This document shows, piece by piece, positions 1 through 35,657 of a stretch of DNA of 35,657 nucleotides; the first letter of the stretch is position 1; each line of letters starts with the position of its first letter. The DNA lies in the IMG/VR virus record IMGVR_UViG_2541047892_000001; one strand, written 5' to 3'. Source of the DNA: a virus. Its lineage: Duplodnaviria > Heunggongvirae > Uroviricota > Caudoviricetes. Below the pieces are notes generated by a model. The model searched no databases, was not told the origin of the DNA, and worked only from the letters and a program-made list of their open reading frames with translations. The translations under genes were made by a program, and so were the position numbers.

Positions 1-95
1 TTTTCTTCTGAAATGTACCCCAGGCTGGCAAAGGCTTATCCGACCAATAAATTACCGGATTTACGGGGCGAATTTATCCGTGGCTGGGATGACGG
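1..95. repeat. Inverted repeat arm (95 bp, perfect) paired with 1324..1418; truncated by window edge
   Basis: Reverse complement of 1..95 is identical to 1324..1418; first mismatch is at nt 96/1323. Confidence 0.85.
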
Positions 96-384
96 GCGAG
101 GGATTGATGCAGGACGTGCTTTATTGAGCTTTCAAACTGGGATGCTGGAAAAACACCGCCATATTGTTGTAGCTAACGATGGGTATGACACAAAGGATGA
201 ATGGGAGTTGGCCACAATTTTCAAAAAAACATATTCACAAGGCCGGGGACTTGATGCTGCAAATACAGGAGGGAGTTTGATTCCATCACCAACGCTTCAT
301 TCACGAGGAAGTATTGGTAACACTGGTGGTAGTGAAACTCGCCCCCGCAATATTGCATTTAACTATATCGTGAGGGCGGCTTAA
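1..384 (+). CDS. Alternative tail-fibre C-terminal segment, 5'-partial (frame open from window edge)
   Basis: Frame is open from nt 1; translation FSSEMYPRLAKAYPTNKLPDLRGEFIRGWDDGRGID... matches the internal sequence of the minus-strand tail fibre (1008..2003) then diverges, ending in the same TRPRNIAFNYIVRA motif. Confidence 0.6.
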   Translation, partial: FSSEMYPRLAKAYPTNKLPDLRGEFIRGWDDGRGIDAGRALLSFQTGMLEKHRHIVVANDGYDTKDEWELATIFKKTYSQGRGLDAANTGGSLIPSPTLHSRGSIGNTGGSETRPRNIAFNYIVRAA

Positions 385-390
385 TTATAC

Positions 391-1008
391 TCAACTGGCT
401 GCTGCCAGAGGCATTTCCGGCCAGTTGATATCCGGTGCAGTGCTGATGTCAGTCGCATTAAGCGCATCTATGAAATCAAGCACGGCGTTTAGTTTTTCCG
501 TCTCCTGGGGCGTCAATCGGCGTCCGGCTCGTAGTTTGAGATTAATAAGCTCAACAGATGCCATTGCCTGTTCCTCAAGTTGCTGACGATGCGCTCCGGC
601 AGCTTCCAGTTCTGCTGCGTGCTGTCGTCTCGTATCTGTCACCCAGGTCTCACCATCCCAGACATCATAGATGGTAGCTGGCTGTTTCACCGTCGTATCT
701 GAAGGGTAATCTCCCGGCTGTGTGATTTGCACAGCGTTACCATTCTCTGTGCTGTAAACCGTTTCGCCTCTGTGGTCTGGAACATATTTCCAGATGTTCT
801 GGTCGGTATCACGACAGACAGCGAAGCCGGGGCGTTTTTCTGGTGGCGCGTCAATGCATGAGTGAGCCGGAATTCCAACACCATAAGCGAGATATTCAAC
901 AGTGGCAGAGAGATATTCACGGTTTTCAGCATCGTAGTTATAAACGGTAATATCGCCTGCAGTTATAGCGATACCATTCTGATCAAGTACTGCAGCAGCA
1001 TTATTCAT
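391..1008 (-). CDS. Tail fibre assembly protein (Tfa / Mu U / P2 gpG-like)
   Basis: 205 aa; C-terminal region LTPQETEKLNAVLDFIDALNATDISTAPDINWPE is typical of tail fibre assembly chaperones; immediately downstream of the tail fibre on the same strand. Confidence 0.85.
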   Translation of the reverse strand: MNNAAAVLDQNGIAITAGDITVYNYDAENREYLSATVEYLAYGVGIPAHSCIDAPPEKRPGFAVCRDTDQNIWKYVPDHRGETVYSTENGNAVQITQPGDYPSDTTVKQPATIYDVWDGETWVTDTRRQHAAELEAAGAHRQQLEEQAMASVELINLKLRAGRRLTPQETEKLNAVLDFIDALNATDISTAPDINWPEMPLAAAS

Positions 1009-2003
1009 TAAGTAGCCCTTACAATATAGTTAAACGCAATATTACGGGGGCGGTTTTCCGTTCCTGTATTCCCTCCGTTGGCACCTAATCTATAAACACC
1101 ACGAGTGCCAATAGCACGTAGTGAAGATGGAACTTTTACACCTGACTCATCTGTTTTAACAATCCCGCCATCACCGTATGTAGCCAGTATACCAGGGTTT
1201 GTTCCTGCACGGGTGCTGTTTGCAGCAAGCCCTTCACCGGTCCATAACTCCATATAGTGAGTATGATCCATAACCGAATGTGGTTGTGCATTAAGCAAGA
1301 AACGCCCTGAATCAATTCCCCGTCCGTCATCCCAGCCACGGATAAATTCGCCCCGTAAATCCGGTAATTTATTGGTCGGATAAGCCTTTGCCAGCCTGGG
1401 GTACATTTCAGAAGAAAATGCTGCGCCGTTACATTTCAGCCACCCTGCTGGTGGTGTTGCTGAGGGCCACGGAACGGGCACACCAACGGGCAGTGCAGAG
1501 CCTTCCCCCAAACCAAGGTTTTTGACAAACAGCGCAGGATCAGGAATATCTGCGCCGTTCTGGTCTTTAGCCAGCTTTTCCGCCAGCTTGTTCAGTACCG
1601 TAGTCGCAAAGTTTGGATCATTACCGAGAGCGTCAGCCAGCTCTTTAAGCGTATCCAGTGTCTCAGGGGCGCTGCCTGCAAGCGCCGCAAGTGCTTTGGC
1701 CACAAACTCCGTCGTCGCCAGCTTTTTGCTGTTATCGCCATTTGCAGGTGTAGGTGCTGTTGGTGTGCCGGTGAATGCCGGACTGGCTTTCGGTGCATAC
1801 TGGGCATGCGGGTCTGCTGCCGCGATGTGTTTCGCAAGGTCAGCCCCGCCTTTTTCAACCTGTTGCTTCAGGTACAGCGTGCGGCTGGCCAGTTGTTTAC
1901 CCTGACGGTTAGAAATTCCGTCAGGCCCGCCCAGAACGGGGTCAGAGACCTCAATCTGGTAGATGCCGTCTTCCCACTGTGGGGTTTCAGGTAGATTTGC
2001 CAT
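1008..2003 (-). CDS. Tail fibre protein
   Basis: 331 aa; N-terminal MANLPETPQWEDGIYQIE...GKQLASRTLYLKQQV is a recognisable phage tail-fibre N-domain; followed by Tfa; contains the inverted-repeat arm. Confidence 0.85.
   Translation of the reverse strand: MANLPETPQWEDGIYQIEVSDPVLGGPDGISNRQGKQLASRTLYLKQQVEKGGADLAKHIAAADPHAQYAPKASPAFTGTPTAPTPANGDNSKKLATTEFVAKALAALAGSAPETLDTLKELADALGNDPNFATTVLNKLAEKLAKDQNGADIPDPALFVKNLGLGEGSALPVGVPVPWPSATPPAGWLKCNGAAFSSEMYPRLAKAYPTNKLPDLRGEFIRGWDDGRGIDSGRFLLNAQPHSVMDHTHYMELWTGEGLAANSTRAGTNPGILATYGDGGIVKTDESGVKVPSSLRAIGTRGVYRLGANGGNTGTENRPRNIAFNYIVRAT
1324..1418. repeat. Inverted repeat arm inside tail-fibre gene, partner of 1..95
   Basis: Direct comparison of the two strands; lies inside the 1008..2003 CDS at the point where the two fibre C-termini start to diverge. 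Confidence 0.85.
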
Positions 2004-2005
2004 AA

Positions 2006-2584
2006 TTAACTGCTCCCGTGGTTGTAACTACCGTCATAACGGGTAGTACTGTTGTATCGAATGGCGACAGACTGATATTCCAGGCTTGCCAGATGGCAGC
2101 GAGCCGGAGCAAAGGCAGCGAGCGTCTGACGTAACAGCGCTGCCTGATCATTAGTGATGGGCTGTTGAAGGATGACCCGATAGACTGCCCAGGCTTGTGC
2201 ATCGCCATGGACGAAAAGTCCGTTGTAACTGTGTTTACCGTCGTAGCCGATCTGCCCCGTACCTTCTATCAGCTCTACTTCGCCAAAGCCAAAACGGCGG
2301 ATAATTTCCCGGATTGACCACGGCGTTCCTTTATAGCGGTGTAGCTCGATAGCGGATTTGATAAGCATGCGGCGTACATCGTCCGATTCCGCCAGTTCCC
2401 AGCCATCGCCGAACAACGAGAACTGCTCGCCCAGCCATGGCAGCGCGGAACTGTCGACGATATCGACGAGACAGACCATCAGTACGCTCAGGTCGATGTT
2501 ATCCAGCCGTTCGGCCAGTCTTCCCAGCGTTTTGAGACTGATATCACCCTCAAGCGGTGGCGGTAGTCGTAGCGCCTCAGCCAT
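2006..2584 (-). CDS. Baseplate protein, P2 gpI / Mu gp48-like
   Basis: 192 aa; LPWLGEQFSLFGDGWELAE resembles the gpI family; sits between the J-like baseplate protein and the tail fibre. Confidence 0.65.
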   Translation of the reverse strand: MAEALRLPPPLEGDISLKTLGRLAERLDNIDLSVLMVCLVDIVDSSALPWLGEQFSLFGDGWELAESDDVRRMLIKSAIELHRYKGTPWSIREIIRRFGFGEVELIEGTGQIGYDGKHSYNGLFVHGDAQAWAVYRVILQQPITNDQAALLRQTLAAFAPARCHLASLEYQSVAIRYNSTTRYDGSYNHGSS

Positions 2585-3680: not shown

Positions 3681-4018
3681 AGCAGTTCCTGAGTACGGGG
3701 TTGTCCGTCTGAGCCTTTCCAGCTCACCCGGAGCGTAAGATGTTCGCCGTCGACGGCGGGTTTAACCGACATAAGCTGGCAGCGGGGTTCCCAGCGCCTG
3801 ATGGCATCGACGGATTCGCGAACCACATGCGGAATGGCCCGGTCGACAGGCCAGTCGATATAAAGGTGCAGATTGCTGCCGAACTCTGGGCGATGCGGGT
3901 CGCTGCCGCGGGGAGTCCGCAGGATGATCTGGATGGACTGCTGGATATCATCCAGCCCCCGGACGATTTCGCCGGGAGCCTGCAGAGCCGGTTGCCAGAA
4001 TACTGAGGTCGTTTTCAT
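3671..4018 (-). CDS. Baseplate protein, gpW / gp25 lysozyme-like (Mu gp46)
   Basis: 115 aa; LDDIQQSIQIILRTPRGSDPHRPEFGS matches the GPW/gp25 family motif. Confidence 0.85.
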   Translation of the reverse strand: MKTTSVFWQPALQAPGEIVRGLDDIQQSIQIILRTPRGSDPHRPEFGSNLHLYIDWPVDRAIPHVVRESVDAIRRWEPRCQLMSVKPAVDGEHLTLRVSWKGSDGQPRTQELLWR

Positions 4019-4089
4019 GGGGGCAGTATTGCCCCAGTAAGAAAAGAACGATATTAAAGGGATTTAAAAAGGAGTTATTGATACGTTTG

Positions 4090-10609: not shown

Positions 10610-10775
10610 TCAGTGGTTCGTCCCAGTCTGCCGGGTCTTTGTTGATTTTGCGCACCTGCTTCAGGTCTTTTACTGTCAGGCGTTTCAGTTCAATCTGTTC
10701 AATTCTGGTACCTGCAGCAGTGGTGAAAGGATAAGACAGCGTAAAAGTATCGGACTGGGTCTGTGACATGATCAT
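10434..10775 (-). CDS. Tail assembly chaperone (gpE-like)
   Basis: 113 aa directly upstream of the tape measure; AAGGAG precedes the second ATG (10769); overlapped by an extension ORF in another frame. Confidence 0.7.
   Translation of the reverse strand: MIMSQTQSDTFTLSYPFTTAAGTRIEQIELKRLTVKDLKQVRKINKDPADWDEPLIARSTGILPEDLDNMDLADYMELQKRFQKITGLGKSDKNTDAGAGPAGEMVQVSAGGD
10437..10445 (-). other. Putative programmed frameshift site (G-rich run before the chaperone stop codon)
   Basis: Minus-strand ...GCC GGG GGA GAT TGA; the only homopolymeric run in the E/E' overlap close to the stop. Confidence 0.35.
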
Positions 10776-10866
10776 ACTCCTTTGTAAATTCAGAGCAGTA
10801 TGTCTGGCGGTGGACGTGACGGATATTAAAGGAGATTAAGAAGAAGGGGCCGGAGCCCCTGTGATG

Positions 10867-11150: not shown

Positions 11151-11672
11151 TCAGCCCCCGATATTGATCCGATAGTCAGTCAGTTGATCAACGCCACCGA
11201 CGCGGAAGATGTTGGCCAGATAGTCCAGTTGCAGCAACTCTTCACCATCCAGTACCTGTCTGATATACGTGCAGGTGAAGCTACTGGAGAACTCGGCGTT
11301 CTCGTGCTGTTTAAACGTCCCCAGCGGGTTCTTCTTGAACATAATTGTCAGGAAGGTGACCAGCGGGATTTCGTCGATCAGCCCCTGCGAGCTGTAGCGC
11401 TGGACGCTGGAGCGACACTGCAGCGCCAGCGACTTGTACGGGTTCGCGGCAGACAGCATCGCATCGCGGTAAAAGCTGTTCCATTTGATTTCGCCTTCCA
11501 GTTTGTCAAAACCAGCCGGGAGTTCCACCTTACCCACCATCCCCAGTGCCTTGTGTTCCTGCATAATCATGGAGACATCGGGGAGTTTAACCTCCTCAGC
11601 CCGTCCCAGCAGGTTAGTACCATCCAGATAGATGTTGGCATTCGTGATTCGGTTTATCTCAATCTTTGACAT
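11151..11672 (-). CDS. Major tail tube protein (P2 FII / Mu M-like)
   Basis: 173 aa; N-terminal MSKIEINRITNANIYLDGTNLLGRAEEVKLP is typical of contractile-tail tube proteins; immediately follows the sheath. Confidence 0.9.
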   Translation of the reverse strand: MSKIEINRITNANIYLDGTNLLGRAEEVKLPDVSMIMQEHKALGMVGKVELPAGFDKLEGEIKWNSFYRDAMLSAANPYKSLALQCRSSVQRYSSQGLIDEIPLVTFLTIMFKKNPLGTFKQHENAEFSSSFTCTYIRQVLDGEELLQLDYLANIFRVGGVDQLTDYRINIGG

Positions 11673-15567: not shown

Positions 15568-16683
15568 TTACAGGCAGCGTGCGACAGCAGCCTCATAGCT
15601 GATGCCTTCTTTTTTGGACAGGGCCACTGCTTTCTGATGCAGGGCCAGACGCTCAGGATCGGCTTCCGCAAACTCCGCCACATCCACCTTCACCGTGTCG
15701 CCGACACGCTCCTTTGTGGCCTGTTCGGCGAAATTCATCACCGGCTCCCCGTCGGAGAGCAATGAACGGAAGGCGGTGGCCAGCGGCGTGCGGCTTTCCC
15801 CCTCAGCAAACTCCACCGGCTTGTCGCCACCGGCGACGGCATCCAGCAGGGCAACCACCACGGAGGAGGCGCGGGGAGCCAGACGCCCCTCTGCGACCAG
15901 TTTTTCTGCAAAGGCCACATTGTCCTTATGCAGTTGCTCCTGTCTGGCCTGTGCATCACGCGCATCGCGATCAGCAGCCTGCTGCTTCAGGCGGCGGTTC
16001 TCCTCCTGAAGGGCTTCAATCTCTTCTTTTGTCATCGATGATTCCTCGTTACTTGCGGAAGACGGCACCTGGCCTGTCTCACTGAATTGTGCACCTGCTG
16101 CATCCTGCGACGGTGTGTCGCGGTACGCCTCTTCGCGCAGATTGTTGAGCTGCCATTCCGGCAGGACTTTTTCTGCTTCGTCCAGACTGAAGCGGGCGAT
16201 CAGAAAATCGCGCAGCTTTCCCCACAGGGAGGCATTCGTGATGGCCTGCCAGTCGGCGAACTCCACCACACCTTCTTCCTGCTCACTGAAGGACACCTGT
16301 TTCAGCCCCTTGACGGAAGGTGGCTGTGCCCCGAGAAAGCCCACATGGCGCAGGTAGAGCACGCCGGGCTTCGGATTGGACGGTGAATCCGGGAGGTAGA
16401 AAGAGGCGGACACTTTTTTGAATCGTCCGTCGGTGACCATCTCAGCAAACTGCGGGTCCAACTGGGCAGGCTCTGCCATCAGATCGACGCCGCTGAGCGA
16501 CAGGGCTTTCACCCAGCCCCACGCCGGGTCTTCCGTTCTGGGATGACCAATCACGAGTGGTGCTTCATGGACGGACGGGTCATAGGCTTTCACGCAGGCG
16601 GCAAGATCGTCTGGCGTGAACGGCAGTTTTTTGCCGTGCATATCGGTATGAGTACCGGCTTTAAAAATGTGAATGGCTGACAT
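15568..16683 (-). CDS. Head maturation protease / scaffold (Mu gpI family)
   Basis: 371 aa; acidic coiled-coil middle (EEIEALQEENRRLKQQAADRDARDAQ) and gpI-like N-terminus. Confidence 0.82.
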   Translation of the reverse strand: MSAIHIFKAGTHTDMHGKKLPFTPDDLAACVKAYDPSVHEAPLVIGHPRTEDPAWGWVKALSLSGVDLMAEPAQLDPQFAEMVTDGRFKKVSASFYLPDSPSNPKPGVLYLRHVGFLGAQPPSVKGLKQVSFSEQEEGVVEFADWQAITNASLWGKLRDFLIARFSLDEAEKVLPEWQLNNLREEAYRDTPSQDAAGAQFSETGQVPSSASNEESSMTKEEIEALQEENRRLKQQAADRDARDAQARQEQLHKDNVAFAEKLVAEGRLAPRASSVVVALLDAVAGGDKPVEFAEGESRTPLATAFRSLLSDGEPVMNFAEQATKERVGDTVKVDVAEFAEADPERLALHQKAVALSKKEGISYEAAVARCL

Positions 16684-16897
16684 TTTGCTGTCCCGCGTTA
16701 TGTTGTCGGAGACAGTTTGTGAGAAATGCAGGCCCGGCGATTTTAATCTGCTTTAGAAAACATCAGGGGAGAAGGACAGGGAAAGCAATGCGGTGAACCG
16801 GAAGCGGTTATAAAACAGAGGCTGTAAAGCCTTTATAAAGGTAATACAGCCCCTCATTCGCTGGCAATGATAAATCACCCGCCTGAAGAGAGAAAAC

Positions 16898-17356
16898 TCA
16901 GCGACGGGCCGCTGATTCAAGATGGCGGACAATGGTATCGAGGATGGGGATTACCACTTCAGGCTGTAGTTCTCCATCCCCCGTCACCGGCAGGAACGGG
17001 CGGGCCGGAAGTTCAACAGACTCATTACGCCCCGTTTTACCCCCGAACTGGTGAATGGCACCGTAAACAACGTTGGTCCCCACAACAGCCTGCCGGTCGT
17101 CATGGTCGGTTGATACTGACCCCATCAGACGCCCGGTATCCTGCAGTGTCTGCCCGTCACGTTCTTCCGCTGCCAGCGAGGGCATCCACCCCGGACGCCC
17201 CTCATCAAGAAAGTTAAACTGTGTTTCCGCCAGCAGGGTTCCGGCGATTTTGCGCATCGCGGGCTCCAGGTCTGTGGCAGCAAGATCCAGCGCACGGAGG
17301 CTCCGGCGCAGGGATTTATCGTTAATGGTGATACTGACCAGGTTATCGGAAGCCAT
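16898..17356 (-). CDS. Virion morphogenesis protein (Mu gpG family)
   Basis: 152 aa; family-typical sequence, downstream of the F-like gene. Confidence 0.78.
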   Translation of the reverse strand: MASDNLVSITINDKSLRRSLRALDLAATDLEPAMRKIAGTLLAETQFNFLDEGRPGWMPSLAAEERDGQTLQDTGRLMGSVSTDHDDRQAVVGTNVVYGAIHQFGGKTGRNESVELPARPFLPVTGDGELQPEVVIPILDTIVRHLESAARR

Positions 17357-18180: not shown

Positions 18181-19654
18181 GCAGACGCCCCCAGATATTT
18201 GCCACAAAGAGAATGCGGGCCAGCCGCTCCTGCAGATCGTCCGTGTTCATCTGAGGGTAGAGCTCCGCCAGTTCGCCCAGCAGCTCAGACGGGTTAACCC
18301 CGTTTTCGACCCGCCTGAACAGAGGTGCCAGGACGGGTTCCAGCGTGCCATTTAACACACCTCCGTTCATCAGAATGTCCAGCGCGTCGTCAAGCTGCTG
18401 TTGTGCATCATGATCGGCGCTTATCGCCTCGGCAAACTCCGCAGGCACTGCCCCGTCCGCAACCGGTGCATCAGAGAGGTCAATATCCCCCTCCTGCAGC
18501 TGGTACTCCCGCATGAAGTACTGCGGGGTCAGGCGTAGTCCCGCGCGGGTGAGTTTTTCGTCGCGGGTGGCACGGGTGTCATCAATGGCCTCCTGTTCCC
18601 ACATGGCCCAGACCGGACACGGCACATCGCCGAAGTTCAGGGTGACCACCGTTCTGATGACCTGATTCACTGCCGCCTGAATGATGTCCGCATCCGCATC
18701 GCGGATATCAGCCGTCACCTCCAGCCCGGCCTGTGCAGAGGCCTTGTTACTGTTCGCTTCCGTGGTCTGATTCTGACCGAGTAATGCAATGGAGATCTCA
18801 CTGCGTGACAGCGTGATCAGCTCGCGGAATACCTCGCTGCTGTCCGCCTTGCCATCCGCGGCTTTGAGTTCAATGCTGCTGTCATCGGGGATGGCGGCCA
18901 CAGCGTCCTCCACCATCTGCTCCATGGAGTCCAGCAGTTTTTCAATCTCTGCATCATTTGCACCCCTCGGGTGCTTACCGATCACCCACGGGGAGCCAAA
19001 CTTTTCGGCAAAGCGGAGCCAGAATTTCATCCCGCCTTTCTTGAAGGCGACCGGCCAGAAGCACATGGACAGGTCCGGGAAACCGTAAGGATTGTCATAC
19101 GAGGCATCCTGTGCCGGCACCACGAATTTTGACGGTGACAGCAGCTCACCCTCCACACCCGCATCACGCGCCCGGAAGCGCAGGCAGTTGTCCGTATCAA
19201 ACTGAAACCACTCAGGCGGTTTGCCGACAATATCCGTCACCGCCCACGCCCTGACCGAACGGCCCCACATGATTTCACAGGGCTGATACCCGTAGAGCAC
19301 GGCATCGCTCATCTCACCGATGATGCGGGACAGATCCAGATCGTCGAGCATGTCGCGGATGAAACGGAAGACCCGGGCAGAAGCGTGACCGCGCTCCAGT
19401 CCACGCTCCAGCGATTTGAGCGCTGCTTTACGTCTGCGGATACAGCCTCCGACCAGCGGGTCGGTGCGCAGTTCGCGGTAGATACGGATATCCCGTCCCT
19501 GAGCCTTGAGAATGGGATCAGGATTGGGCAGATACATGCCCAGTCCGTAAAAGTCGATCGCGCGGCTGCGGGAGGCAATCTGCGCGGTCAGTGATTTCTG
19601 AGGCTCAGAAAAAGCAACAAATTCATCGGGTGAAACCCAGATACCCCTCGCCAT
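18161..19654 (-). CDS. Portal protein (Mu gpH family)
   Basis: 497 aa; directly downstream of the large terminase with overlapping stop/start. Confidence 0.88.
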   Translation of the reverse strand: MARGIWVSPDEFVAFSEPQKSLTAQIASRSRAIDFYGLGMYLPNPDPILKAQGRDIRIYRELRTDPLVGGCIRRRKAALKSLERGLERGHASARVFRFIRDMLDDLDLSRIIGEMSDAVLYGYQPCEIMWGRSVRAWAVTDIVGKPPEWFQFDTDNCLRFRARDAGVEGELLSPSKFVVPAQDASYDNPYGFPDLSMCFWPVAFKKGGMKFWLRFAEKFGSPWVIGKHPRGANDAEIEKLLDSMEQMVEDAVAAIPDDSSIELKAADGKADSSEVFRELITLSRSEISIALLGQNQTTEANSNKASAQAGLEVTADIRDADADIIQAAVNQVIRTVVTLNFGDVPCPVWAMWEQEAIDDTRATRDEKLTRAGLRLTPQYFMREYQLQEGDIDLSDAPVADGAVPAEFAEAISADHDAQQQLDDALDILMNGGVLNGTLEPVLAPLFRRVENGVNPSELLGELAELYPQMNTDDLQERLARILFVANIWGRLHERDNG

Positions 19655-24140: not shown

Positions 24141-24203
24141 GTGTGTCTCCTTGTTTGGTGGAGACAGCATCACAAATGTGGCGGGATACGGATTTTAAAG
24201 CGC

Positions 24204-24243
24204 GTTATAAGTGTTCGCAGAGGGAAGCGACCAGAATGGTCGC
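24204..24243 (-). promoter_or_regulatory. Candidate activator-dependent late promoter for the lysis operon
   Basis: Minus-strand TATAAC (24209..24204) lies 17 nt downstream of a perfect dyad GCGACC-n5-GGTCGC (24227..24243) occupying the -35 position, about 65 nt upstream of the holin start. Confidence 0.4.
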
Positions 24244-24270
24244 ACACAAAACATAGGGGAGGCAAGCACA

Positions 24271-24594
24271 ATGACTGAACCGAAACAGTCTGGTATTAAA
24301 AAAGGGTTCCTCTTTGGGAGCAGAATCGGAGAGCAGAATAAAACTTACACGCTAAGCTTGGATGCATGTTGTCCAACCGAAGCGATTATAGAGCTGAAAA
24401 ACGTTCTGGTTGCACTTGAAGAGAGAAGAAGTCATTTCGCCAGCGGAGAAAACAACGTCATGCTAATTGGCGATGTGGCGGCGACATCACGATATAAAAC
24501 CGCACCTAATCCTGCGATTCAGTTATCCTTCGACCAACGAATACTGGAAGCGGAATCAGCAGTTCCCAGAACGGTTCGTCCTCACCAGTCTTAA
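24271..24594 (+). CDS. Hypothetical small protein (107 aa), divergent from the lysis operon
   Basis: ATG at 24271 preceded by GGGGAGG with 8-nt spacing; 3' end overlaps the convergent 191-aa gene by 89 nt, so one of the two may be miscalled. Confidence 0.3.
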   Translation: MTEPKQSGIKKGFLFGSRIGEQNKTYTLSLDACCPTEAIIELKNVLVALEERRSHFASGENNVMLIGDVAATSRYKTAPNPAIQLSFDQRILEAESAVPRTVRPHQS

Positions 24595-25081
24595 CTGGGG
24601 CTGCTTCACCCGACCAGTAAAGCCAAGCACGGTGATACAGTTCCAGCACCGGGCAATCACTGTTCAATAACCTCATATCTCCGCGATGCACCTGCTCATT
24701 TGTGATGACTTCATATATCGGTGCCGTTCTTATTTCGTCTTCGCCTCTCTCATCAGCCAGTAATTCCCTGAACTTCCTGACTTCACTCAGATGCTGACAG
24801 GCAAACAGTGACTGATAGCGGGAAGGTTTATCAGGAAAATGGCTACGGCGAACTAACTCAAACACCAGACCGACCAGCAGACTTCTGCTGATTCCACTGT
24901 CATCTTCCATTTTAGGGCCGGGGTTATAGAGATAGTTATACCCGTGACTCGAAAGGCCATTGGGATACATCTGATGAAGAAAAGCGGCCAGTTCTGGCAT
25001 TTCAGGCTCGTATTTTCCGGTAATTACATGACAAGGCGAAGGCAGACGACTAGCGGAATCAAGTGTGTAATACGTTCCCAT
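24506..25081 (-). CDS. Hypothetical accessory protein (191 aa), no recognisable family
   Basis: ORF in the accessory region between lysis genes and repressor; separated from the upstream cassette by a 409-nt non-coding gap. Confidence 0.5.
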   Translation of the reverse strand: MGTYYTLDSASRLPSPCHVITGKYEPEMPELAAFLHQMYPNGLSSHGYNYLYNPGPKMEDDSGISRSLLVGLVFELVRRSHFPDKPSRYQSLFACQHLSEVRKFRELLADERGEDEIRTAPIYEVITNEQVHRGDMRLLNSDCPVLELYHRAWLYWSGEAAPVKTGEDEPFWELLIPLPVFVGRRITESQD

Positions 25082-27570: not shown

Positions 27571-27617
27571 CTATCACATATAAAACAAACATCATTGCAT
27601 CAACAAAGGAGACAACA

Positions 27618-27806
27618 ATGACTTCCGAACAAGTTAAAACTCTCTTCCGTCAGCGTGGTATCACGTTTACCCGCTGGGCCGAAGAACACGGCTACAGCCG
27701 CAATGAGGTCTATCGTGTTCTCAATGGACAGACCAAAGCTCGTTACGGCAAAGCCCATGAAATTGCCGTAAAGCTGGGATTAAAACCCACGTCAAATGCG
27801 GCATAA
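27618..27806 (+). CDS. Small Ner/Cro-like HTH DNA-binding protein (first early gene)
   Basis: 62 aa; AAGGAG 6 nt upstream; layout resembles Ner/Nlp-type regulators (weak, from memory). Confidence 0.65.
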   Translation: MTSEQVKTLFRQRGITFTRWAEEHGYSRNEVYRVLNGQTKARYGKAHEIAVKLGLKPTSNAA

Positions 27807-27858
27807 ATTTTCCATATATGCAACAGGTTATCACATATTGCAAAAATGGAAATGTGAC

Positions 27859-28167
27859 ATGAGTAAAGTAAATATCTCCAGTTCCGGGACCCGCATCCTA
27901 CGTGTACTCAAAGCTCTACGCGGTCACTCTCTGAACGGTGTTTCTAACGGTGAACTGGCATCAGCCCTAGATGAGTCCCCGGCGAACATCAATCGAGCAC
28001 TCAATACCCTTATCGAAGAGGGACTAGCCCTGAAACTGGAAAACGGGCGTTTCGCACCAGGCATCCAGTTGCTGCAGATCGCCATGGCCCACAGTAACGA
28101 GATGGCACGTGCACAGGATCGCATTAACGAAATCAACCAACGTGTTATTTCAGGTAGTCGTTTGTAA
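27859..28167 (+). CDS. Winged-helix DNA-binding protein
   Basis: ILRVLKALRGH...GVSNGELASALDESPANINRALNTLIEEGL is HTH-like; start uncertain (ATG 27859, or 27796 overlapping the previous gene). Confidence 0.55.
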   Translation: MSKVNISSSGTRILRVLKALRGHSLNGVSNGELASALDESPANINRALNTLIEEGLALKLENGRFAPGIQLLQIAMAHSNEMARAQDRINEINQRVISGSRL

Positions 28168-28177
28168 GGAGTAATCA

Positions 28178-29089
28178 ATGGGACGCACCAAATCACCGGT
28201 TAGCACTGAACTGAACGTCGAGGTACCGCTGTCGGATGATCTCAATGTCAGTCTAAACGCCATGACACAGCATCGCATGGAAATCATGCAACAGTTCGGC
28301 GATGGTCTGCCCTATGAGCGCGATCGTGTTGTCCATGAGGCACGCTTTTATATGGCACAGAGCGCTGAGGCCATGCTGGAGGCAGGTAAGCGGCTGATAA
28401 TCCTTAAGGAAAATGAACCACACGGGGAGTTTATAAAGATTCTTGAAAGTGAGTTGGGGCTGGCATACCGGACATCTGTGAGAATGATGCAAGCATCGAC
28501 AAAATACTTATCCCCGGCGCTGAAACCAAATGTGCCAACGTTGGCACATTTGGGAAAAGCCAAACTTTTCGAATTAATGACAGAAGACGACGAAGAGCTT
28601 GCCGAACTGGCCGACGGCGGCACAGTTGCCGGCATGACGCTTGACGATGTTGATCGCATGTCAGTACGTGAATTGCGTCAGGCCCTGCGTGAAGCGCGCG
28701 AAACCAACGCAGCACAACAGCGTGTTCTCGCCGATAAAAATGAAAAAATAGACTCACTCTCCACCAGACTGGAGAAGAAATCCCGTATTCAGCCACCTGA
28801 GCCTGATGAAGAGGTGAAGAAACTGCGGGCGGAAGTGACCGCGTTAGCGGTTGAGGCGGAATCTGCCATCGCCGTTCGACTGTCCAGCGCTTTTGAGACA
28901 CTGTGCGCATATTGTGCTGAAAACATGATTGATACCCCCAGAGACTTCATGGCAGGCCTGGTCTGTCAACTGGAAAGCACAGCGCGTAGCCTGCGCTCCA
29001 CATTTGACCTGCCGGACGAGCCAACAGGCGATGTCGCGCCTTCATGGCTGACTGAGCCGACGCCACAGATTAACGGGCTGGAGGCATAA
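28178..29089 (+). CDS. Hypothetical early protein (303 aa) with central coiled coil
   Basis: AAGGAG 6 nt upstream of ATG; lies between the regulators and the transposase; no family recognised. Confidence 0.6.
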   Translation: MGRTKSPVSTELNVEVPLSDDLNVSLNAMTQHRMEIMQQFGDGLPYERDRVVHEARFYMAQSAEAMLEAGKRLIILKENEPHGEFIKILESELGLAYRTSVRMMQASTKYLSPALKPNVPTLAHLGKAKLFELMTEDDEELAELADGGTVAGMTLDDVDRMSVRELRQALREARETNAAQQRVLADKNEKIDSLSTRLEKKSRIQPPEPDEEVKKLRAEVTALAVEAESAIAVRLSSAFETLCAYCAENMIDTPRDFMAGLVCQLESTARSLRSTFDLPDEPTGDVAPSWLTEPTPQINGLEA

Positions 29090-29092
29090 CCA

Positions 29093-30862
29093 ATGAATGC
29101 TGCCCTGACTGAACGACTGGTTTATGTCGCCCGCGCGGCACGTGACGCGGGGCATGGTAAACGCGGTGCAATATACGACGCTGCCTGTGCTGAACTTGGC
29201 ATGTCCCGCGCCACTCTGCTGCGCAGGCTGAAGGAGGTATCTGTGACTGATAAACGCAAAAAACGCGCCGATGCCGGGCGCAGCGCCCTGACCCGCGACG
29301 AAGCCGCGCTGATATCTGCCACACTGCGTGAGGCCACCCGCAAGAACGGTAAGCGTCTCTATTCCATCGCAGATGCAGTGGAAACCCTGCGGGCTAACGG
29401 CTTTATCTCCGCAGGCAGAACAGATGAAACCACCGGTGAGTTTTTCCCGTTGTCCGAAGATGCCATCAGTCGTGCCTTGCGTAACTATGGCCTGCACCCG
29501 GAACAACTGGATGCCCCTGCGCCGCATACCGAAGTGGCCAGTCTGCATCCCAATCACGTCTGGCAGATTGATGCCTCGCTCTGCACGCTTTACTACCTGA
29601 GCAATGGACACAAAGGGCTGCAGGTGATGGACAGCGCGAAGTTCTACAAGAATAAACCCGCTAACCTTGCCCGTATCGCCAGTGACCGCGTGTGGAGTTA
29701 CGAGATTACCGACCATGCCAGCGGCTGGATTTACGTTGAGTATGTGACGGGTGCGGAATCCGGTGAGAACCTGTGTTCTGTGCTTATCAACGCCATGCAG
29801 GAGCGTGGCGGCGCAGACGTGCTGCACGGCGTGCCGAAAATACTCTATCTCGACCCCGGCTCGGCAAACACCGCGGGTATGACGAAAAACATGTGCCGCT
29901 CACTGGGCATCGACCTGATAGCGCACAAGCCGCATAACGCCCGCGCCACCGGACAGGTGGAAAAGGCGCGTGACATTATCGAACGCAAGCTGGAGCCGGG
30001 TCTGAAATTCCGGCCGGTTCACAGTCTGGAAGAACTCAACGCGCTGGCCGCGAAATGGCGTAGCCACTTTAACGCAACAGCTGTTCACAGCCGCCACGGT
30101 AAAACCCGCACGGATATCTGGCTGAAGATTACTGCTGAGCAGCTGAAAAAAGCGCCTTCCGTTGAGGTATGCCGTGAACTGGCTGTGGCGACACCAGAAC
30201 TCCGCAAAGTCACGCCAAAACTTCGTGTCTCGTTCCGGGGCACTGAATTTGACGTATCAACGGTACCGGGCGTACTGGTTGGTGAAAAACTGATGATTAC
30301 CCGTAACCCATGGCGCAGCGATGTGGCACAGGTGGTTCTGACCGGTGAGGACGGCCACGAGACGTTCTTCCTGGTCGAAGAGGTCAGAAAGAACGAGTTT
30401 GGCTTTGCTGAAGGCGCGGCGGTATTTGGCGAAAGTTACAAAGCCCTGCCGGAAACACCGGCACAGACGGCGGCAAAAGAAACCGAAGCGCTGGTCACCG
30501 GTACAGACAACGCCGCAGATGCAGCTGCCGCACGCAAGGCGAAGGCGCTGCCGTTCGGCGGGCGGCTTGACCCGTATAAACATATTGATGACGCCACACT
30601 TCCGGCCTGTATACCGAAGCGCGGTCAGGTCTCTGATGTACGCAGACCGCGCACTGAACAACGTCCCATGACTCATGTGGAGGCCGCGAAAGCCCTGCGC
30701 GATAAGTTCAGCGCCGACGGCCTTACCTGGACGCCGGAACATTACCGCCAGTTAACGGCACAGTACCCGGACGGCGTACCGGAAGCCGCACTGGATGAAG
30801 TAATGGCCACGCTGACCACGCCGGCCCGCAGCAGCGTTATCAGCATTGTTAACGGCAACTGA
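29093..30862 (+). CDS. DDE (rve/integrase-core type) transposase
   Basis: 589 aa; candidate catalytic residues in HVWQIDAS, LYLDPGSANT and a downstream Glu; GGAGG 8 nt upstream; followed by an AAA+ ATPase; no resemblance to the MuA N-terminus. Confidence 0.8.
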   Translation: MNAALTERLVYVARAARDAGHGKRGAIYDAACAELGMSRATLLRRLKEVSVTDKRKKRADAGRSALTRDEAALISATLREATRKNGKRLYSIADAVETLRANGFISAGRTDETTGEFFPLSEDAISRALRNYGLHPEQLDAPAPHTEVASLHPNHVWQIDASLCTLYYLSNGHKGLQVMDSAKFYKNKPANLARIASDRVWSYEITDHASGWIYVEYVTGAESGENLCSVLINAMQERGGADVLHGVPKILYLDPGSANTAGMTKNMCRSLGIDLIAHKPHNARATGQVEKARDIIERKLEPGLKFRPVHSLEELNALAAKWRSHFNATAVHSRHGKTRTDIWLKITAEQLKKAPSVEVCRELAVATPELRKVTPKLRVSFRGTEFDVSTVPGVLVGEKLMITRNPWRSDVAQVVLTGEDGHETFFLVEEVRKNEFGFAEGAAVFGESYKALPETPAQTAAKETEALVTGTDNAADAAAARKAKALPFGGRLDPYKHIDDATLPACIPKRGQVSDVRRPRTEQRPMTHVEAAKALRDKFSADGLTWTPEHYRQLTAQYPDGVPEAALDEVMATLTTPARSSVISIVNGN

Positions 30863-30872
30863 GGAGGGAAAC

Positions 30873-32039
30873 ATGCTGGTACTGAAGCAGCAACTGAAAG
30901 AGGCCCGTATTCCACAGGCGGTGGTGGCGAGAGCTGTCGATGTTTCTGAGGCCACGCTGGCCCAGATTGTGAATCATAACGCGTGGCCCCGCACCAGCCC
31001 CGGAGAAGTGCGCCGGCGTCTTGCGTCCTGGTTGGAAAGTCAGGGGATTGATACAGCGAAGAGTTTTGATGCTGTACAGGGCGCGGCCACTCCCCGTACA
31101 GCGGGTACCACAGATAAAACGAGCCTCAGTGAGGAAGAGAATATGTTACTCAAAAAACAGGTGTTATTCCCGGCAACCAAAAAAGCGTTTGGTCTTTTCC
31201 GTGACCCGTTCGCCGACGAAGCCATGCAGGGTTCTGATGATGTGTTCACCACCCCGGACATTCGCTACGTGCGTGAGGCGTTGTACCAGACAGCCCGTCA
31301 TGGTGGGTTTATGGCCGTCATCGGTGAGTCCGGTGCGGGTAAATCCACGCTGCGCCGCGACCTGACTGAACGTATCAACCGCGAGAATGCGCCGGTAATT
31401 GTTATCGAGCCATACATCATCGCTATGGAAGACAACGATGTGAAAGGGAAAACCCTGAAGGCAGCAGCTATTGCCGAAGCCATTATCAGTACCATCGCAC
31501 CACTGGAAAGCATCAGACGCAGTCAGGACGCCCGCTTTCGCCAGTTGCATCGCGTCCTGAAAGACAGCAGCCAGGCGGGGTTCAGCCACGTTCTGGTGAT
31601 TGAGGAGGCCCACAGTCTGCCCATTCCGACACTGAAACACCTCAAACGCTTTTTTGAGCTGGAGTCCGGTTTCAAAAAACTGCTGTCCATCGTGCTGATT
31701 GGCCAGCCGGAACTGGCGACAAAACTGTCTGAACGCAATATGGAAGTCCGTGAAGTCGTTCAGCGCTGTGAGGTGGTCGAACTTCTGCCTCTGGACAATA
31801 ACCTTGAAGAGTTTCTGACGTTCAAACTGCAACGGGCAGGTAAACAACTGACGGACATTATGGACGCCAGTGCAGTGGATGCCATACGTGCCCGCCTGAG
31901 CAATCCGGGAAGTCATCGTAAAAATATGGTCAGCCTGTTGTATCCGCTGGCCGTCAGTAACCTGGTGATAGCCGCCATGAATCTGGCCGCTGAAATCGGG
32001 GTTCCACAGGTCAACGCTGACGTTGTCAAAGGGGTTTAA
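30873..32039 (+). CDS. Transposition AAA+ ATPase (MuB / TniB / ExeA-like)
   Basis: Walker A VIGESGAGKST and Walker B VLVIEEAH; N-terminal HTH-like segment; GAGGAGGG ribosome-binding site; start 10 nt after the transposase stop. Confidence 0.85.
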   Translation: MLVLKQQLKEARIPQAVVARAVDVSEATLAQIVNHNAWPRTSPGEVRRRLASWLESQGIDTAKSFDAVQGAATPRTAGTTDKTSLSEEENMLLKKQVLFPATKKAFGLFRDPFADEAMQGSDDVFTTPDIRYVREALYQTARHGGFMAVIGESGAGKSTLRRDLTERINRENAPVIVIEPYIIAMEDNDVKGKTLKAAAIAEAIISTIAPLESIRRSQDARFRQLHRVLKDSSQAGFSHVLVIEEAHSLPIPTLKHLKRFFELESGFKKLLSIVLIGQPELATKLSERNMEVREVVQRCEVVELLPLDNNLEEFLTFKLQRAGKQLTDIMDASAVDAIRARLSNPGSHRKNMVSLLYPLAVSNLVIAAMNLAAEIGVPQVNADVVKGV

Positions 32040-32041
32040 TA

Positions 32042-32311
32042 ATGAAATCCACCACAGGTATCAACCAGCAAATCAGCAAAGTGCAGTCAGCCATTATGGC
32101 GCTTAAGGCGACGAACACGGATGTACAAAGCATCACCATCAGGGGTAACAAACCTGTCATCCGCGTTTCCCGGAGTGCGCATTGCATGCGCATGCTTGAG
32201 CAGGGAAAGGCCTGTTATCTGTATACCGGACATGACCACAGGGGATATTTCCGTCAGGGCGTTTTCGAACTGCACGGCTGTCGCGTCGTGTGGCCGGAAT
32301 CTTTGTGGTAA
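32042..32311 (+). CDS. Hypothetical early protein (89 aa)
   Basis: Starts 2 nt after the ATPase stop; no family recognised. Confidence 0.45.
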   Translation: MKSTTGINQQISKVQSAIMALKATNTDVQSITIRGNKPVIRVSRSAHCMRMLEQGKACYLYTGHDHRGYFRQGVFELHGCRVVWPESLW

Positions 32312-32338
32312 TCAGCACAACTGGAGAAATCATAAGAT

Positions 32339-32869
32339 ATGGCAAAAAGTACAAAAGGGGCAAAACGTATCAAGTCCGCAGCGGCACTCTGGGTACCGGG
32401 GACACGCGAAGAGGTCATTGAGGGAATCAGACTGCTCGGTGACGCACAACGTGAACTGGTCAGGGCTGAAACAGAAATGAATGACGCCATTGGCGATATC
32501 ACCGCACGTTATGCCCCGCTCACCGAGAGCCTAAAAAAACGCATGGCCGAACTGCAGTCCGGTATTCAGACATGGTGTGAGGCACACCGTGATGAACTGA
32601 CCGGCAACGGGAAGGTGAAGTTCGCTAACCTCACCACCGGCGAGGTGCAGTGGCGAAACCGTCCGCCATCAGTCAGTATCCGTGGAGCGGATAATGTTAT
32701 TGAACTACTGAGACGTCTGGGGCTTGAGCGCTTTATTCGTGTAAAAGAGGAAATAAATAAAGATGCCATTCTGAATGAAAAAGAGGCCGTGAAAAATATT
32801 CCCGGTATTACCATAAAAAGTGATATTGAGGATTTTTCAATAATTCCTTTTGAGCAGGATGTGCAGTAA
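32339..32869 (+). CDS. gam: Host-nuclease inhibitor Gam (Mu Gam family)
   Basis: 176 aa; KRIKSAAA...GDxQRE...ETEMNDAI...VSIRG...ERFIR...EDFSIIPFEQ closely parallels Mu Gam as recalled from memory. Confidence 0.88.
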   Translation: MAKSTKGAKRIKSAAALWVPGTREEVIEGIRLLGDAQRELVRAETEMNDAIGDITARYAPLTESLKKRMAELQSGIQTWCEAHRDELTGNGKVKFANLTTGEVQWRNRPPSVSIRGADNVIELLRRLGLERFIRVKEEINKDAILNEKEAVKNIPGITIKSDIEDFSIIPFEQDVQ

Positions 32870-32966
32870 ACACACCACGTTAATTATTTAATAAAAACAT
32901 TTTCTTTTTTATTCCGGCGTCAGCGCCGTGGGCTTCTGCACGCCGGAAACAGAGGAGAATTAAATT

Positions 32967-33161
32967 ATGATATTTAAATGTATTCAGTGCGAGAGGGATA
33001 TAACAGCCCTGCGTTTTCACAGCGCCATCGCCGTGATGTCCGGTAAGTACCACGTACCTGCAGTACGTGTCACCCTGGTCTGTCCGTACTGCAGCCAGCA
33101 TTTTTCGGCGGACGTGCCCGTCATGGAATTCTTCCGCCCTGACAGGGAGGACGCGCAATGA
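32967..33161 (+). CDS. Small zinc-ribbon-like protein (CxxC...CxxC)
   Basis: 64 aa with Cys pairs C5/C8 and C39/C42; GAGGAG 9 nt upstream. Confidence 0.5.
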   Translation: MIFKCIQCERDITALRFHSAIAVMSGKYHVPAVRVTLVCPYCSQHFSADVPVMEFFRPDREDAQ

Positions 33162-33430
33162 TTACCCCACAGGACGCAGAAAAACGGACCCGCGAAATTG
33201 TCGCGGAATATATCCGTGAATGTGGTTGTAAAACCCCCAACCATATCCGGCTGGTATTAACCAAATTAATCAGCATGGCCGCGCAGGCTATTGTGGCGAC
33301 CAACGGAAAGGAGGCTGCCCTGCAGGTACTGGTGAACACACTCACCCACACGGCAGAGCATGAGGTGCCGTACCGGATGGAAACTACTGCAGAAGGCGGC
33401 CTGCACATCACCGTCGACCGGAAGCACTGA
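33158..33430 (+). CDS. Hypothetical early protein (90 aa)
   Basis: ATGA overlap with the previous gene. Confidence 0.45.
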   Translation: MITPQDAEKRTREIVAEYIRECGCKTPNHIRLVLTKLISMAAQAIVATNGKEAALQVLVNTLTHTAEHEVPYRMETTAEGGLHITVDRKH

Positions 33431-33439
33431 GGGCGCGAC

Positions 33440-33745
33440 ATGACACGAAACACCGAACTCACCCGCACCGCCCTCTACCGTCTGGCTCTGCAGCGTTTCG
33501 GGCCGGATGCACAGGCCCTGAAACTGACAGAAGAGGCCGCCGAACTGGCGGCCAGTGCCGCCCGCAACCTGAACGGACAGGGCAGCGAAAGTGACCTCGC
33601 GGCAGAGCTGGCAGACGTGGAAATCATGACAGAGCAGCTGCGCCTTCAGGGGATGGACCGGCTGATTGACTTCCACAAACAGAAAAAACTGGAACGCCTT
33701 GCCGCACGGCTGGGCGTCATGTACACCGGAGATACTGAACAATGA
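33440..33745 (+). CDS. Small MazG-like nucleotide pyrophosphohydrolase (tentative)
   Basis: 101 aa; TEEAAELAAS and AAELADVEIMTEQL resemble the MazG/HisE EExxE...E..D motifs. Confidence 0.4.
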   Translation: MTRNTELTRTALYRLALQRFGPDAQALKLTEEAAELAASAARNLNGQGSESDLAAELADVEIMTEQLRLQGMDRLIDFHKQKKLERLAARLGVMYTGDTEQ

Positions 33746-34854: not shown

Positions 34855-35296
34855 ACAACGTCTTATCCAGCTCATTCATATTGCCCGTAATGAACTGGGT
34901 ATGGATGAAGACACCTACCGCCAGATGTTACAGGGGCTGACCGGTAAAGCCTCAACCAAAGGAATGGATACCACACAACTAAACTGCGTGCTGGAATCCA
35001 TGAAAAGGAAAGGCTTTCGCGTTAAGCCTGCCGGAAAAGCCAGCTCCGGTTTACCGCTGGATAACCATCCGCAGTCCAGGAAAATCCGTGCGCTATGGAT
35101 TGAAATGGCTGCTGCCGGCATTGTTCGTGACCGTTCAGAAAATGCATTAGCGCGGTGGATCAAGCGGGAAACGGGCATCAGCGCCCTGCGCTGGCTCAAT
35201 ACTGAACAGGCAAGCAGTGTTATTGAGAAACTGAAGAAGTGGCAGCGCAGAGCTGCGGGAGTAAAACATGAGCGACCTGAATCAGTTTCGAAGTAA
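34844..35296 (+). CDS. GemA / Mu gp16-like protein
   Basis: LIQLIHIARNELGMDEDTYRQMLQGLTGKASTKGM matches the GemA-type N-terminus; AAGGAG 5 nt upstream of ATG 34844. Confidence 0.7.
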   Translation: MMTKQRLIQLIHIARNELGMDEDTYRQMLQGLTGKASTKGMDTTQLNCVLESMKRKGFRVKPAGKASSGLPLDNHPQSRKIRALWIEMAAAGIVRDRSENALARWIKRETGISALRWLNTEQASSVIEKLKKWQRRAAGVKHERPESVSK

Positions 35297-35657
35297 AGGG
35301 CCGGAACTCCTGGTGGAACTGGCACAGCATACCTCTGAGACCGTTCGCGAGATTATTGATATTGAGCCCGCAATTGCCGACCAGATTGGTCAGGCTGTCG
35401 CGAACCGAATGATGCAGGTCTGGGGCGGGCAAAACGTTTATTTCCCAATGGGCATGGTATGGAAGGTCAGTCAGCGCGACCGGGAAATCTTCAGGGAGTT
35501 TAACGGACGCAACCACCACGAACTGGCCCGCAAATTTGGTGTTTCGCTTCAGTGGGTCTACAGCGTGGTTAAGCGGGTAAGAAAAGAAGAACTGGATCGG
35601 ATGCAGGGCAAGCTATTTGCTGATGAACCCGATGCAGATACGGAGAAAAAAGAGTAA
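35268..35657 (+). CDS. mor: Mor/C-family transcriptional activator of late or middle genes
   Basis: 129 aa; GGQNVYFPMG...FNGRNHHELARKFGVSLQWVYSVVKR is the Mor/C HTH region; GGGAG ribosome-binding site; stop codon is the last 3 nt of the window. Confidence 0.85.
   Translation: MSDLNQFRSKGPELLVELAQHTSETVREIIDIEPAIADQIGQAVANRMMQVWGGQNVYFPMGMVWKVSQRDREIFREFNGRNHHELARKFGVSLQWVYSVVKRVRKEELDRMQGKLFADEPDADTEKKE

Follow-up and report, generated by a model that had tools for sequence, protein, structure and literature searches.

A probable boundary between two late transcription units in the G–I-like gap of a BcepMu-like prophage

The element considered here is the non-coding gap between the G-like virion morphogenesis gene and the I-like head maturation protease/scaffold gene in a stretch of 35,657 nucleotides (nt), referred to throughout as the window, which carries a Mu-like transposable prophage of the BcepMu-like type with Escherichia coli as its host. 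This gap is probably the boundary of two late transcription units, arranged like the G–I region of phage Mu. Transcripts from the lysis promoter would run through the G-like gene, and a large share of them would stop at a hairpin (16854..16817) followed by the U-rich tail GUUUUAUAA. An activator of the Mor family would then bind a box at 16758..16739, about 60 nt past the terminator and centred near −42, over the −35 region, and would recruit the host sigma-70 RNA polymerase to a weak −10 element, CAAACT (16719..16714). Transcription of the protease/scaffold-capsid operon is predicted to start at about 16707. Termination, activator binding and the start point are what we infer; the hairpin, the boxes, their conservation and the activator gene come from the sequence analysis itself.

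The length of 214 nt first reported for the gap is exact, with limits of 16684..16897 set by the ends of the flanking open reading frames (ORFs) at 16898 and 16683, and the gap measures 190–240 nt in every relative compared. The tight packing of the late genes elsewhere, which had been remarked on in the original prediction, also holds. With the RefSeq gene calls of strain 503025 mapped onto the window, the junctions from holin to baseplate are of at most 14 nt or overlap, except for five of 50, 214, 97, 174 and 81 nt, and the G–I gap is the longest non-coding stretch of the late region. The 174-nt junction, from chaperone to tape measure, probably holds a frameshifted tail chaperone.

The predicted late promoter box and its hexamer

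The element common to the late sites is a 20-bp box, TTNTAANNNNNNTTAAAATC, followed after 19 nt by a −10-like hexamer, NANNCT. The box was defined by comparing the invariant AT-rich blocks of two alignments, one of the gap (P2; eight relatives) and one of the region upstream of the holin (P1; seven relatives). Upstream of the holin and of the protease gene, TTAAAATC-N23-CTGTCTCC is found with the same spacing. The following sites were found in the window.

16739..16758, minus strand: P2 box TTCTAAAGCAGATTAAAATC, the proposed site of the Mor-family activator; matches TTNTAANGCNNNTTAAAATC together with the lysis box and is invariant across relatives
16714..16719, minus strand: P2 −10-like hexamer CAAACT, 19 nt 3′ of the box; kept in relatives, and also CAAACT in Mu PI
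16706..16707, minus strand: predicted P2 transcription start (inferred), 7–8 nt 3′ of the hexamer
24166..24210, minus strand: P1, before the holin; box TTATAACGCGCTTTAAAATC (24210..24191), 19 nt, GATGCT (24171..24166); conserved in relatives
10797..10841, minus strand: P3, before the tail assembly chaperone; box TCTTAATCTCCTTTAATATC, 19 nt, CATACT; same site in KP12 and BcepMu
4025..4069, minus strand: P4, before the baseplate W-like gene; box TTTTAAATCCCTTTAATATC, 19 nt, AATACT; same site in KP12 and BcepMu

A scan of the window with the consensus TTNTAANGCNNNTTAAAATC, allowing up to three mismatches, returned six matches where 0.6 were expected, a number reached by none of 100 shuffles. The full composite of box, N19 and NANNCT is present exactly four times, always on the late strand, compared with a mean of 0.09 and a maximum of one in 200 dinucleotide-preserving shuffles of the window. 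These composites occupy four of the five spaced late junctions, the one that lacks a composite being the 174-nt junction between chaperone and tape measure. The P2 box itself occurs once in the window.

The layout is repeated in other phages. Klebsiella phage KP12 has four composites at the same gaps, where the spacing of 19 nt is unchanged though the spacers have diverged, and BcepMu has the box, N19 and a hexamer in the same four gaps (CAAGAT, GATGAT, GACAAT and CAACAT). Within the BcepMu G–I gap, TCGTAAAGCCGATTAAAAGA stands at the place of the P2 box, and the 15-mer GCCGATTAAAAGACC is identical upstream of the BcepMu holin. Across the eight relatives in the gap alignment, the P2 hexamer reads CAAACT, CAGACT, CACACT or GACACT, varying only at positions 1 and 3, and the interval from box to hexamer contains no insertions or deletions.

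The distance from the hexamer to the gene is also informative. A start codon lies 6–7 nt past the hexamer at P4 of the window (where the ATG follows after 6 nt, a leaderless-like arrangement), at P4 of KP12, and before gpW and gp32 of BcepMu, which fits the −10 element of a leaderless mRNA. For P2, a start 7–8 nt after the hexamer (about 16707) would place the centre of the box at about −42 (−41.5 to −42.5), overlapping the −35 region. A sigma-70 scan of the late strand of the gap found no promoter with a −35/−10 pair; its one weak match lies on the opposite strand (16677..16704). CAAACT matches TATAAT at three of six positions, which makes it as weak as the −10 of Mu PI. The P1 box can also be matched on the other strand with three mismatches, and the dyad symmetry of the box is only partial. 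Of the features of Mu-type late promoters, the following are found here: a Mor/C-family gene, a −10 without a typical −35, and an upstream element shared by four late sites. The Mor-family protein encoded at 35268..35657 is presumed to be the activator of the four late promoters.

The original prediction had placed a second late promoter in the gap. Comparative sequence supports such a promoter, but moves it away from the octamer with which it had been linked, to the box at 16758..16739 and CAAACT at 16719..16714. TAAAAT, which lies within the box, was considered as an alternative −10 and rejected, and the box was read as the activator site, because the hexamer stands at a constant 19 nt, the start codons follow 6–7 nt after it, and the alignment with Mu PI agrees.

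The dyad GCGACCAttcTGGTCGC upstream of the holin was tried as an activator site and rejected for its lack of conservation in relatives; it resembles a terminator belonging to the gene upstream. Just upstream of the P1 box is a hairpin with a T-run (24214..24240, minus strand; GCGACCA-ttc-TGGTCGC, then TTCCCTCT), whose version in relatives (L098, about 2440..2480) reads GACCAGCCTGGTG...CACCGGGCTGGTC, then GTTCTTTC. This hairpin probably terminates transcription of the accessory (“moron”) gene that precedes it. A local alignment of the lysis-upstream region with the gap, CTCCCCT(G)ATGTTTT (p 0.012), was judged coincidental; its lysis copy is the reverse of the ribosome-binding site of a divergent gene. 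A plus-strand ORF at 24270..24594, with a strong ribosome-binding site (GGGGAGG, 8 nt, ATG), points away from the holin promoter region and overlaps a DUF2441 gene (24506..25081, minus strand) at its 3′ end; it has no RefSeq annotation in strain 503025. In the BcepMu record (AY539836), the annotated ATG of gp32, at 18850, overlaps the predicted hexamer GATGAT, and it is the ATG at 18862, 7 nt past that hexamer, that corresponds to the homologous start (MNAKPLHIF); judged from the sequence, the gp32 annotation is probably four codons too long and its mRNA leaderless.

The terminator candidate and the comparison with Mu

Between the G-like gene and P2, the gap contains the main terminator candidate, a conserved 16-mer and a spacer, and a weaker hairpin lies over the G stop codon.

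16817..16854, minus strand: long two-tier hairpin of 38 nt, the main terminator candidate, AGGGGCUGUA-uua-CCUU-uaua-AAGG-cuu-UACAGCCUCU
16808..16816, minus strand: U-rich tail GUUUUAUAA directly 3′ of the long hairpin, with 5 U in 9 nt, as read from the sequence
16824..16839, minus strand: conserved 16-mer TTTATAAAGGCTTTAC, unique in the window, which holds most of the perfect palindrome CCTTTATAAAGG (16830..16841)
16898..16915, minus strand: weak hairpin TCAGCG-gcccgt-CGCTGA over the G stop codon, then GUUUUCUCUCUU, found by a terminator scan
16761..16790, minus strand: pyrimidine-rich spacer CATTGCTTTCCCTGTCCTTCTCCCCTGATG from terminator to promoter, poorly conserved and diverged between clades

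The long hairpin has a folding energy of −19.6 kcal/mol (z −4.5), matched by none of 200 shuffles, and dominates the local structure when the whole gap is folded. With GUUUUAUAA behind it, it shows the features of an intrinsic terminator, namely a stable GC-containing hairpin followed by a U-tract after a gene. A probable transcript boundary with a terminator had been proposed for this gap, and comparative sequence supports it, with the terminator now assigned to the hairpin at 16854..16817 and the U-tract at 16816..16808. The hairpin over the G stop codon is weaker (−8.8 kcal/mol, z −1.75; 9 of 200 shuffles equally stable) and is lost in the L100 clade; it is a possible minor first terminator.

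Relatives also carry hairpins at the gap, with folding energies of −20.9 kcal/mol in KP12, −32.2 kcal/mol in L101 and −19.6 kcal/mol in L007, and BcepMu has a 9-bp stem, CCCGTAAAG...CTTTACGGG, then TTTGG, at the same place. The 16-mer TTTATAAAGGCTTTAC is kept in every enterobacterial relative and is identical in phages of E. coli, Klebsiella and Burkholderia; it is found in BcepMu although the remaining gap is unalignable and the stem partners have changed. The palindrome CCTTTATAAAGG occurs once in the window. Like intrinsic terminators between phage late operons, the candidate has a stable hairpin and a U-rich run after a stop codon, and it differs from them in the sequence conservation of its apical 16 nt from E. 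coli to Burkholderia phages, in a U-tract that varies by clade, and in a lower stem that is replaced in one clade.

The Mu record (AF083977) gives a 196-nt G–I gap with a gyrase cut site 20 nt past the G stop, a terminator called by TransTermHP and the C-dependent late promoter PI, the annotation of which refers to Margolin, Rao and Howe 1989 (PMID 2522923). The statement in the original prediction that the lysis-to-G and I-onward units of Mu are separate late transcripts agrees with this record, which has C-dependent late promoters before lys and I and a terminator between them. The flanking genes, G-like and I-like, are the same in Mu and the window, and the gaps are of 196 and 214 nt, respectively. 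The Mu G–I terminator folds in two tiers (−19.8 kcal/mol, z −4.0; tail GUUUUAUCUU), and both gaps have a two-tier hairpin of about −20 kcal/mol with GUUUUAU and a pyrimidine-rich spacer. The spacer at 16761..16790 aligns with the CT-rich tract of Mu's gap at p 0.07.

In Mu, a late promoter combines a −10 element, unaccompanied by a −35, with a dyad C site centred at −43.5 (PMC2582627). Mu PI and the predicted P2 of the window both have CAAACT as a weak −10, no −35 and an upstream box, with its centre at about −42 in the window and −43.5 in Mu, and CGCAAACTGACTGCTCAC of PI resembles CACAAACTGTCTCCGAC of the window. Both genomes have four such late promoters, those of the window being predicted, and an activator of the Mor/C family. 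The upstream elements are different: the four late promoters of Mu have a common CCATAACCCC about 24 nt upstream of TAGACT, CAAACT, TATCCT and TAAGAT, whereas the window box, TTNTAA-N6-TTAAAATC, is unrelated to CCATAACCCC. A single Mor/C-family gene is seen in the window, compared with the cascade of Mor and then C in Mu. The other predicted internal promoters of the window stand before the tail chaperone and baseplate W, whereas those of Mu are inside N (PP) and before com/mom, and the early operon of the window is inverted relative to the late genes. The newly defined activator box is the main addition made here; the layout of the G–I boundary itself is already known from Mu.

Several points weigh against the proposed boundary. 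On the promoter side, the box was built from P1 and P2, two of the four window sites that the scan then returns, so the independent sites are only the other two in the window and those in KP12 and BcepMu. The hexamers also make poor −10 elements (in the E. coli phage position −8 is a C, and T is missing from −12), and the specificity of the activator is assumed, because the box is unlike the Mu C or Mor sites in sequence. On the terminator side, the U-tail of the KP12 clade is degenerate (CGCUUUGC) and the L100 clade has a different hairpin, or lower stem, before the conserved block. Conservation of the putative terminator across relatives is not simple, and termination is likely but not secure because of the weak U-tract in the KP12 clade and the different lower stem in the L100 clade. 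Finally, the conservation of the 16-mer TTTATAAAGGCTTTAC goes far past what termination would call for, which hints at a further role at the level of DNA.

Other readings of the gap

It is possible, though we hold it to be doubtful, that the main role of the gap's conserved 5′ half (about 16817..16900) is that of a central element like a strong gyrase site, which can coexist with a terminator and a promoter. By binding there, gyrase would wind the prophage into a supercoiled loop and assist the synapsis of its ends for replicative transposition, as happens with the Mu site, and the hairpin would in part be a by-product of phased, bendable DNA. In Mu, the predicted terminator presumably lies inside the right arm of the gyrase site. 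According to the literature, Mu and FluMu have their gyrase site between G and I (PMC2628397) and sites of this kind are present in Mu-like prophages (PMC3820752); in AF083977 the Mu cut is placed just past the G stop. Deletion of the Mu site set replication back by about 100 min (PMC10052514). In the window, this part of the gap holds the following conserved block.

16868..16883, minus strand: conserved block A, GGCGGGTGATTTATCA, (near-)invariant in the window, KP12, L098 and L100–L105

The gap lies at 48.6% of the prophage of about 36.9 kb, the corresponding figures being 48.7% for Mu, about 48% for KP12 and 51% for BcepMu. The prophage ends were mapped against the empty K-12 ppiD–ybaV site, with a 6-bp overlap as the target duplication. 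This central location is not independent evidence, as it follows from the conserved gene order. Phasing of A/T at 10–11 bp falls in the top 0.11% of 105-bp windows in our sequence, ranks first in KP12 and is in the top 0.42% for the Mu site region, but such phasing is also common upstream of promoters and is not specific to gyrase. The best motif position, 16873/16874, is 24–25 nt past the G stop and within block A, and both blocks A and B are conserved beyond terminator needs.

A closer look at the motif argues the other way. No outstanding gyrase-motif match was found in the gap with a symmetric 130-bp position weight matrix rebuilt from 404 published cleavage sites and the W3110 sequence, a matrix that reproduces the published scores imperfectly (cross-validated r 0.81–0.87; 9.7 for the Mu site against 14.3 published). 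The gap scores 4.4–4.7 (rank about 850–1100 of 35.5k) and KP12 6.8 (rank 288), compared with rank 6 of 36.6k positions for the Mu site under the better of two models, and known strong gyrase sites score highest in their replicon (Sutormin 2018). Likeness of block A (GCGGGTGATTT) to the Mu core GCGGCTGATTT, GCGG(G/C)TGATTT, is at chance level and on the opposite strand (p 0.34), and a gyrase site by sequence similarity to Mu was rejected on this result. Compared with the strong gyrase site of Mu (Pato, Howe and Higgins 1990; Oram and Pato 2004), the gap is alike in its G–I position at 48–49%, just past the G stop, and in its strong 10–11 bp A/T phasing overlapping the terminator hairpin, and is different in its unremarkable match to the E. 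coli gyrase motif and chance-level core similarity. On this sequence evidence, a gyrase site in the gap is possible but unproven. Oram and Pato are said to have found that the central site of a related Salmonella Typhi prophage is cleaved by gyrase and cannot replace the Mu site.

The predicted promoters are also associated with inverted repeats, at the following positions.

16688..16715, minus strand: inverted repeat CTGTCTC...GGGACAG, whose 3′ arm holds the Shine-Dalgarno-like GGGA (16694..16691)
24141..24171, 16684..16719, 10770..10802 and 4018..4035: inverted-repeat sites in the window
11510..11560, 18835..18870 and 30800..30830: inverted-repeat sites in BcepMu (L132)

These GC-rich repeats surround or border the predicted −10 hexamers and extend as far as the Shine-Dalgarno sequence or the start codon. 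The window has, for instance, GGGGC[AATACT]GCCCC-c-ATG, and BcepMu has CGCCC[GATGAT]GGGCG-cc-ATG and ATGCCGTC[CAAGAT]GACGGCAT. The CTGTCTC/GGGACAG hairpin has a folding energy of −10.7 kcal/mol (z −2.5) and pairs in 56 of 56 cells across the eight relatives, where four of its seven pairs vary, solely through G-U wobble. It would form only in read-through RNA, because its 5′ arm lies upstream of the predicted start. Over eight predicted promoters, the regions from hexamer to start codon exceed shuffles in structure (Fisher combined p 1.4e-6). A combined idea, which we regard as unlikely, is that such hairpins in read-through RNA mask initiation while transcripts begun at the promoters, several of them leaderless, stay translatable, and that the 16-mer TTTATAAAGGCTTTAC, in phased DNA at the centre of the genome, would be the gyrase site of this family. 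The masking of translation by these hairpins is speculation; if true, whether the leading gene of a late operon is translated would vary with the starting point of its transcript.

Palindromes at the gap were also seen in more distant genomes. The GC-rich, Xanthomonadales-like relatives L116, L010 and L058 have a perfect 14-bp palindrome, CGCGTTATAACGCG, in the G–I gap, the core of which, TTATAA, recalls CCTTTATAAAGG of the window and the lysis box TTATAACGCG. In these relatives a hairpin abuts the ATG, and L116 and L058 differ by two compensatory pair changes (GGCCCG/CGGGCC vs GGGTCG/CGACCC).

The same structured regions could be taken to mean that there is no internal promoter and that one long late transcript carries gap hairpins that tune translation of the protease gene or stability of the RNA. 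This is improbable: the hairpin before the ATG does pair in all relatives, and the excess of structure at the eight predicted promoters would suit it, but it leaves unexplained both the box, 19 nt and hexamer at four late gaps in three phage lineages and the start codons 6–7 nt after the hexamer.

Very improbable is the original prediction in its literal form, in which a 5-bp stem is the terminator and the octamer ATAACGCG beside the I start marks the promoter. The stem AGGCU-uuac-AGCCU exists (16832..16819, minus strand), followed by the U-rich run CTGTTTTATAA, but is too weak as a terminator. Alone it reaches −5.6 to −5.9 kcal/mol (z −1.5), with 17 of 200 shuffles equally stable, and a terminator scan over 1.6 kb found four sites of this kind where 1.5 were expected. 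It is also part of the 3′ half of the long hairpin, with which it competes, and it was rejected as a terminator since it is both weak and subsumed by the −19.6 kcal/mol structure. The octamer is likewise present at both the lysis promoter and the I-like start, 1–2 nt from where it had been placed (actual positions 16694..16701 and 24201..24208). With a third copy on the plus strand at 30976..30983, there are three matches in the window against 0.86 expected, and 6 of 100 shuffles reach three. The KP12 gap copy reads GTAACGCG. The octamer was rejected as an element common to both promoters, given its chance frequency and its lack of conservation in KP12. Its lysis copy belongs to the upstream box and not, as proposed, to the −10 region, and its gap copy falls within the 5′ leader predicted here; if the −10 were at 16701..16696, the leader would be of about 6 nt and lack a Shine-Dalgarno sequence.

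Most improbable of all is that the gap encodes a 41-codon protein (GTG 16877 to TAA 16753; hypothetical protein KP12_270 in KP12): the frame is open in the window, KP12 and L101 with the same TAA end, but that end is shared because the stop codon is part of the conserved promoter box, L100, L105 and L005 have GCG in place of the start codon and in-frame stops ahead of it, no spaced Shine-Dalgarno sequence is present, the C-terminal half has wholly diverged between the window and KP12, the frame is unannotated in RefSeq and PhiKM, and it was rejected for want of a conserved start, ribosome-binding site and protein sequence. An Rfam 15 covariance-model search of the gap gave only chance-level matches (E at least 2.3, far under the gathering scores), and the gap has 18 10-mers in common with the rest of the window, where about 16 are expected, which gives no sign that its sequence is repeated there.

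The prophage, its relatives and what the map offers

The minus strand carries the late genes (lysis, head, tail), which begin at about 24140 and run to position 1. The early operon (regulators, transposase, Gam, GemA) occupies about 27600 to 35657 of the plus strand, with the Mor-family gene last. The genes that bear on the gap are as follows.

16898..17356, minus strand: G-like virion morphogenesis gene, last of the lysis-to-G block; Pfam PF05069 Phage_tail_S (E 4.9e-23), “Mup31, G” in PhiKM
15568..16683, minus strand: I-like head maturation protease/scaffold gene, first of the next late block; PHROG 976 “head maturation protease” (E 6e-163)
35268..35657, plus strand: Mor-family transcription activator gene; Pfam PF08765 Mor (E 1.3e-43), RefSeq “Mor transcription activator family protein”

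The protease is 49% identical to BcepMu gp32, which is named “Mu I equivalent”. The nearest phage record is Escherichia phage PhiKM, which is 99% identical and listed under Bcepmuvirus, and the next are Phi06_2974 B and Klebsiella phage KP12, each about 84% identical. The same prophage is carried by 637 of 5426 complete E. coli genomes (about 12%), and relatives are known from Klebsiella, Salmonella and Burkholderia.

The true ends of the prophage lie beyond the window, about 1 kb further left and 163 bp further right. The left end of the window (1..1500) differs from the prophage of strain 503025, which is otherwise 99.9% identical and has there (NZ_CP025892.1, 278311..281356) a serine recombinase (invertase) with alternative tail-fibre/assembly genes. 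This suggests an invertible host-range segment resembling the G segment of Mu. The 503025 copy also carries IS100 and IS2 insertions in its baseplate region. In an Enterobacter asburiae relative (L009; NZ_VRKN01000022.1, 2321..3130), one ORF of 269 residues fuses the G-like gene to the C-terminal 159 residues of the protease, and a deletion has taken the gap and the protease N-terminus in what is probably a decaying prophage. The record OM835952.1 (L131; “Klebsiella phage KP12 clone KP12_2”) has Vequintavirinae in its taxonomy line, yet it is a complete-looking BcepMu-like transposable phage of 34.9 kb with an invertase, a P2-like tail, a Mu-like head, a transposase and a Mor-family “rdgB” gene. 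It is probably a co-induced prophage and not part of KP12.

The understanding of these systems is unchanged by this analysis, and the ideas of a gyrase site and of masking in read-through RNA are more interesting but unproven. What the analysis offers is a concrete map of late transcription in this family, made up of four predicted promoters (each a 20-bp box, a fixed spacing and a −10) and a terminator, which would be useful for annotating prophages, for predicting the targets of Mor-family activators and for designing reporters of induction. The layout of Mu, in which the G–I interval holds a terminator, a promoter and, perhaps, a central gyrase site, would on this map persist in the family even though the sequence of the box is unrelated.

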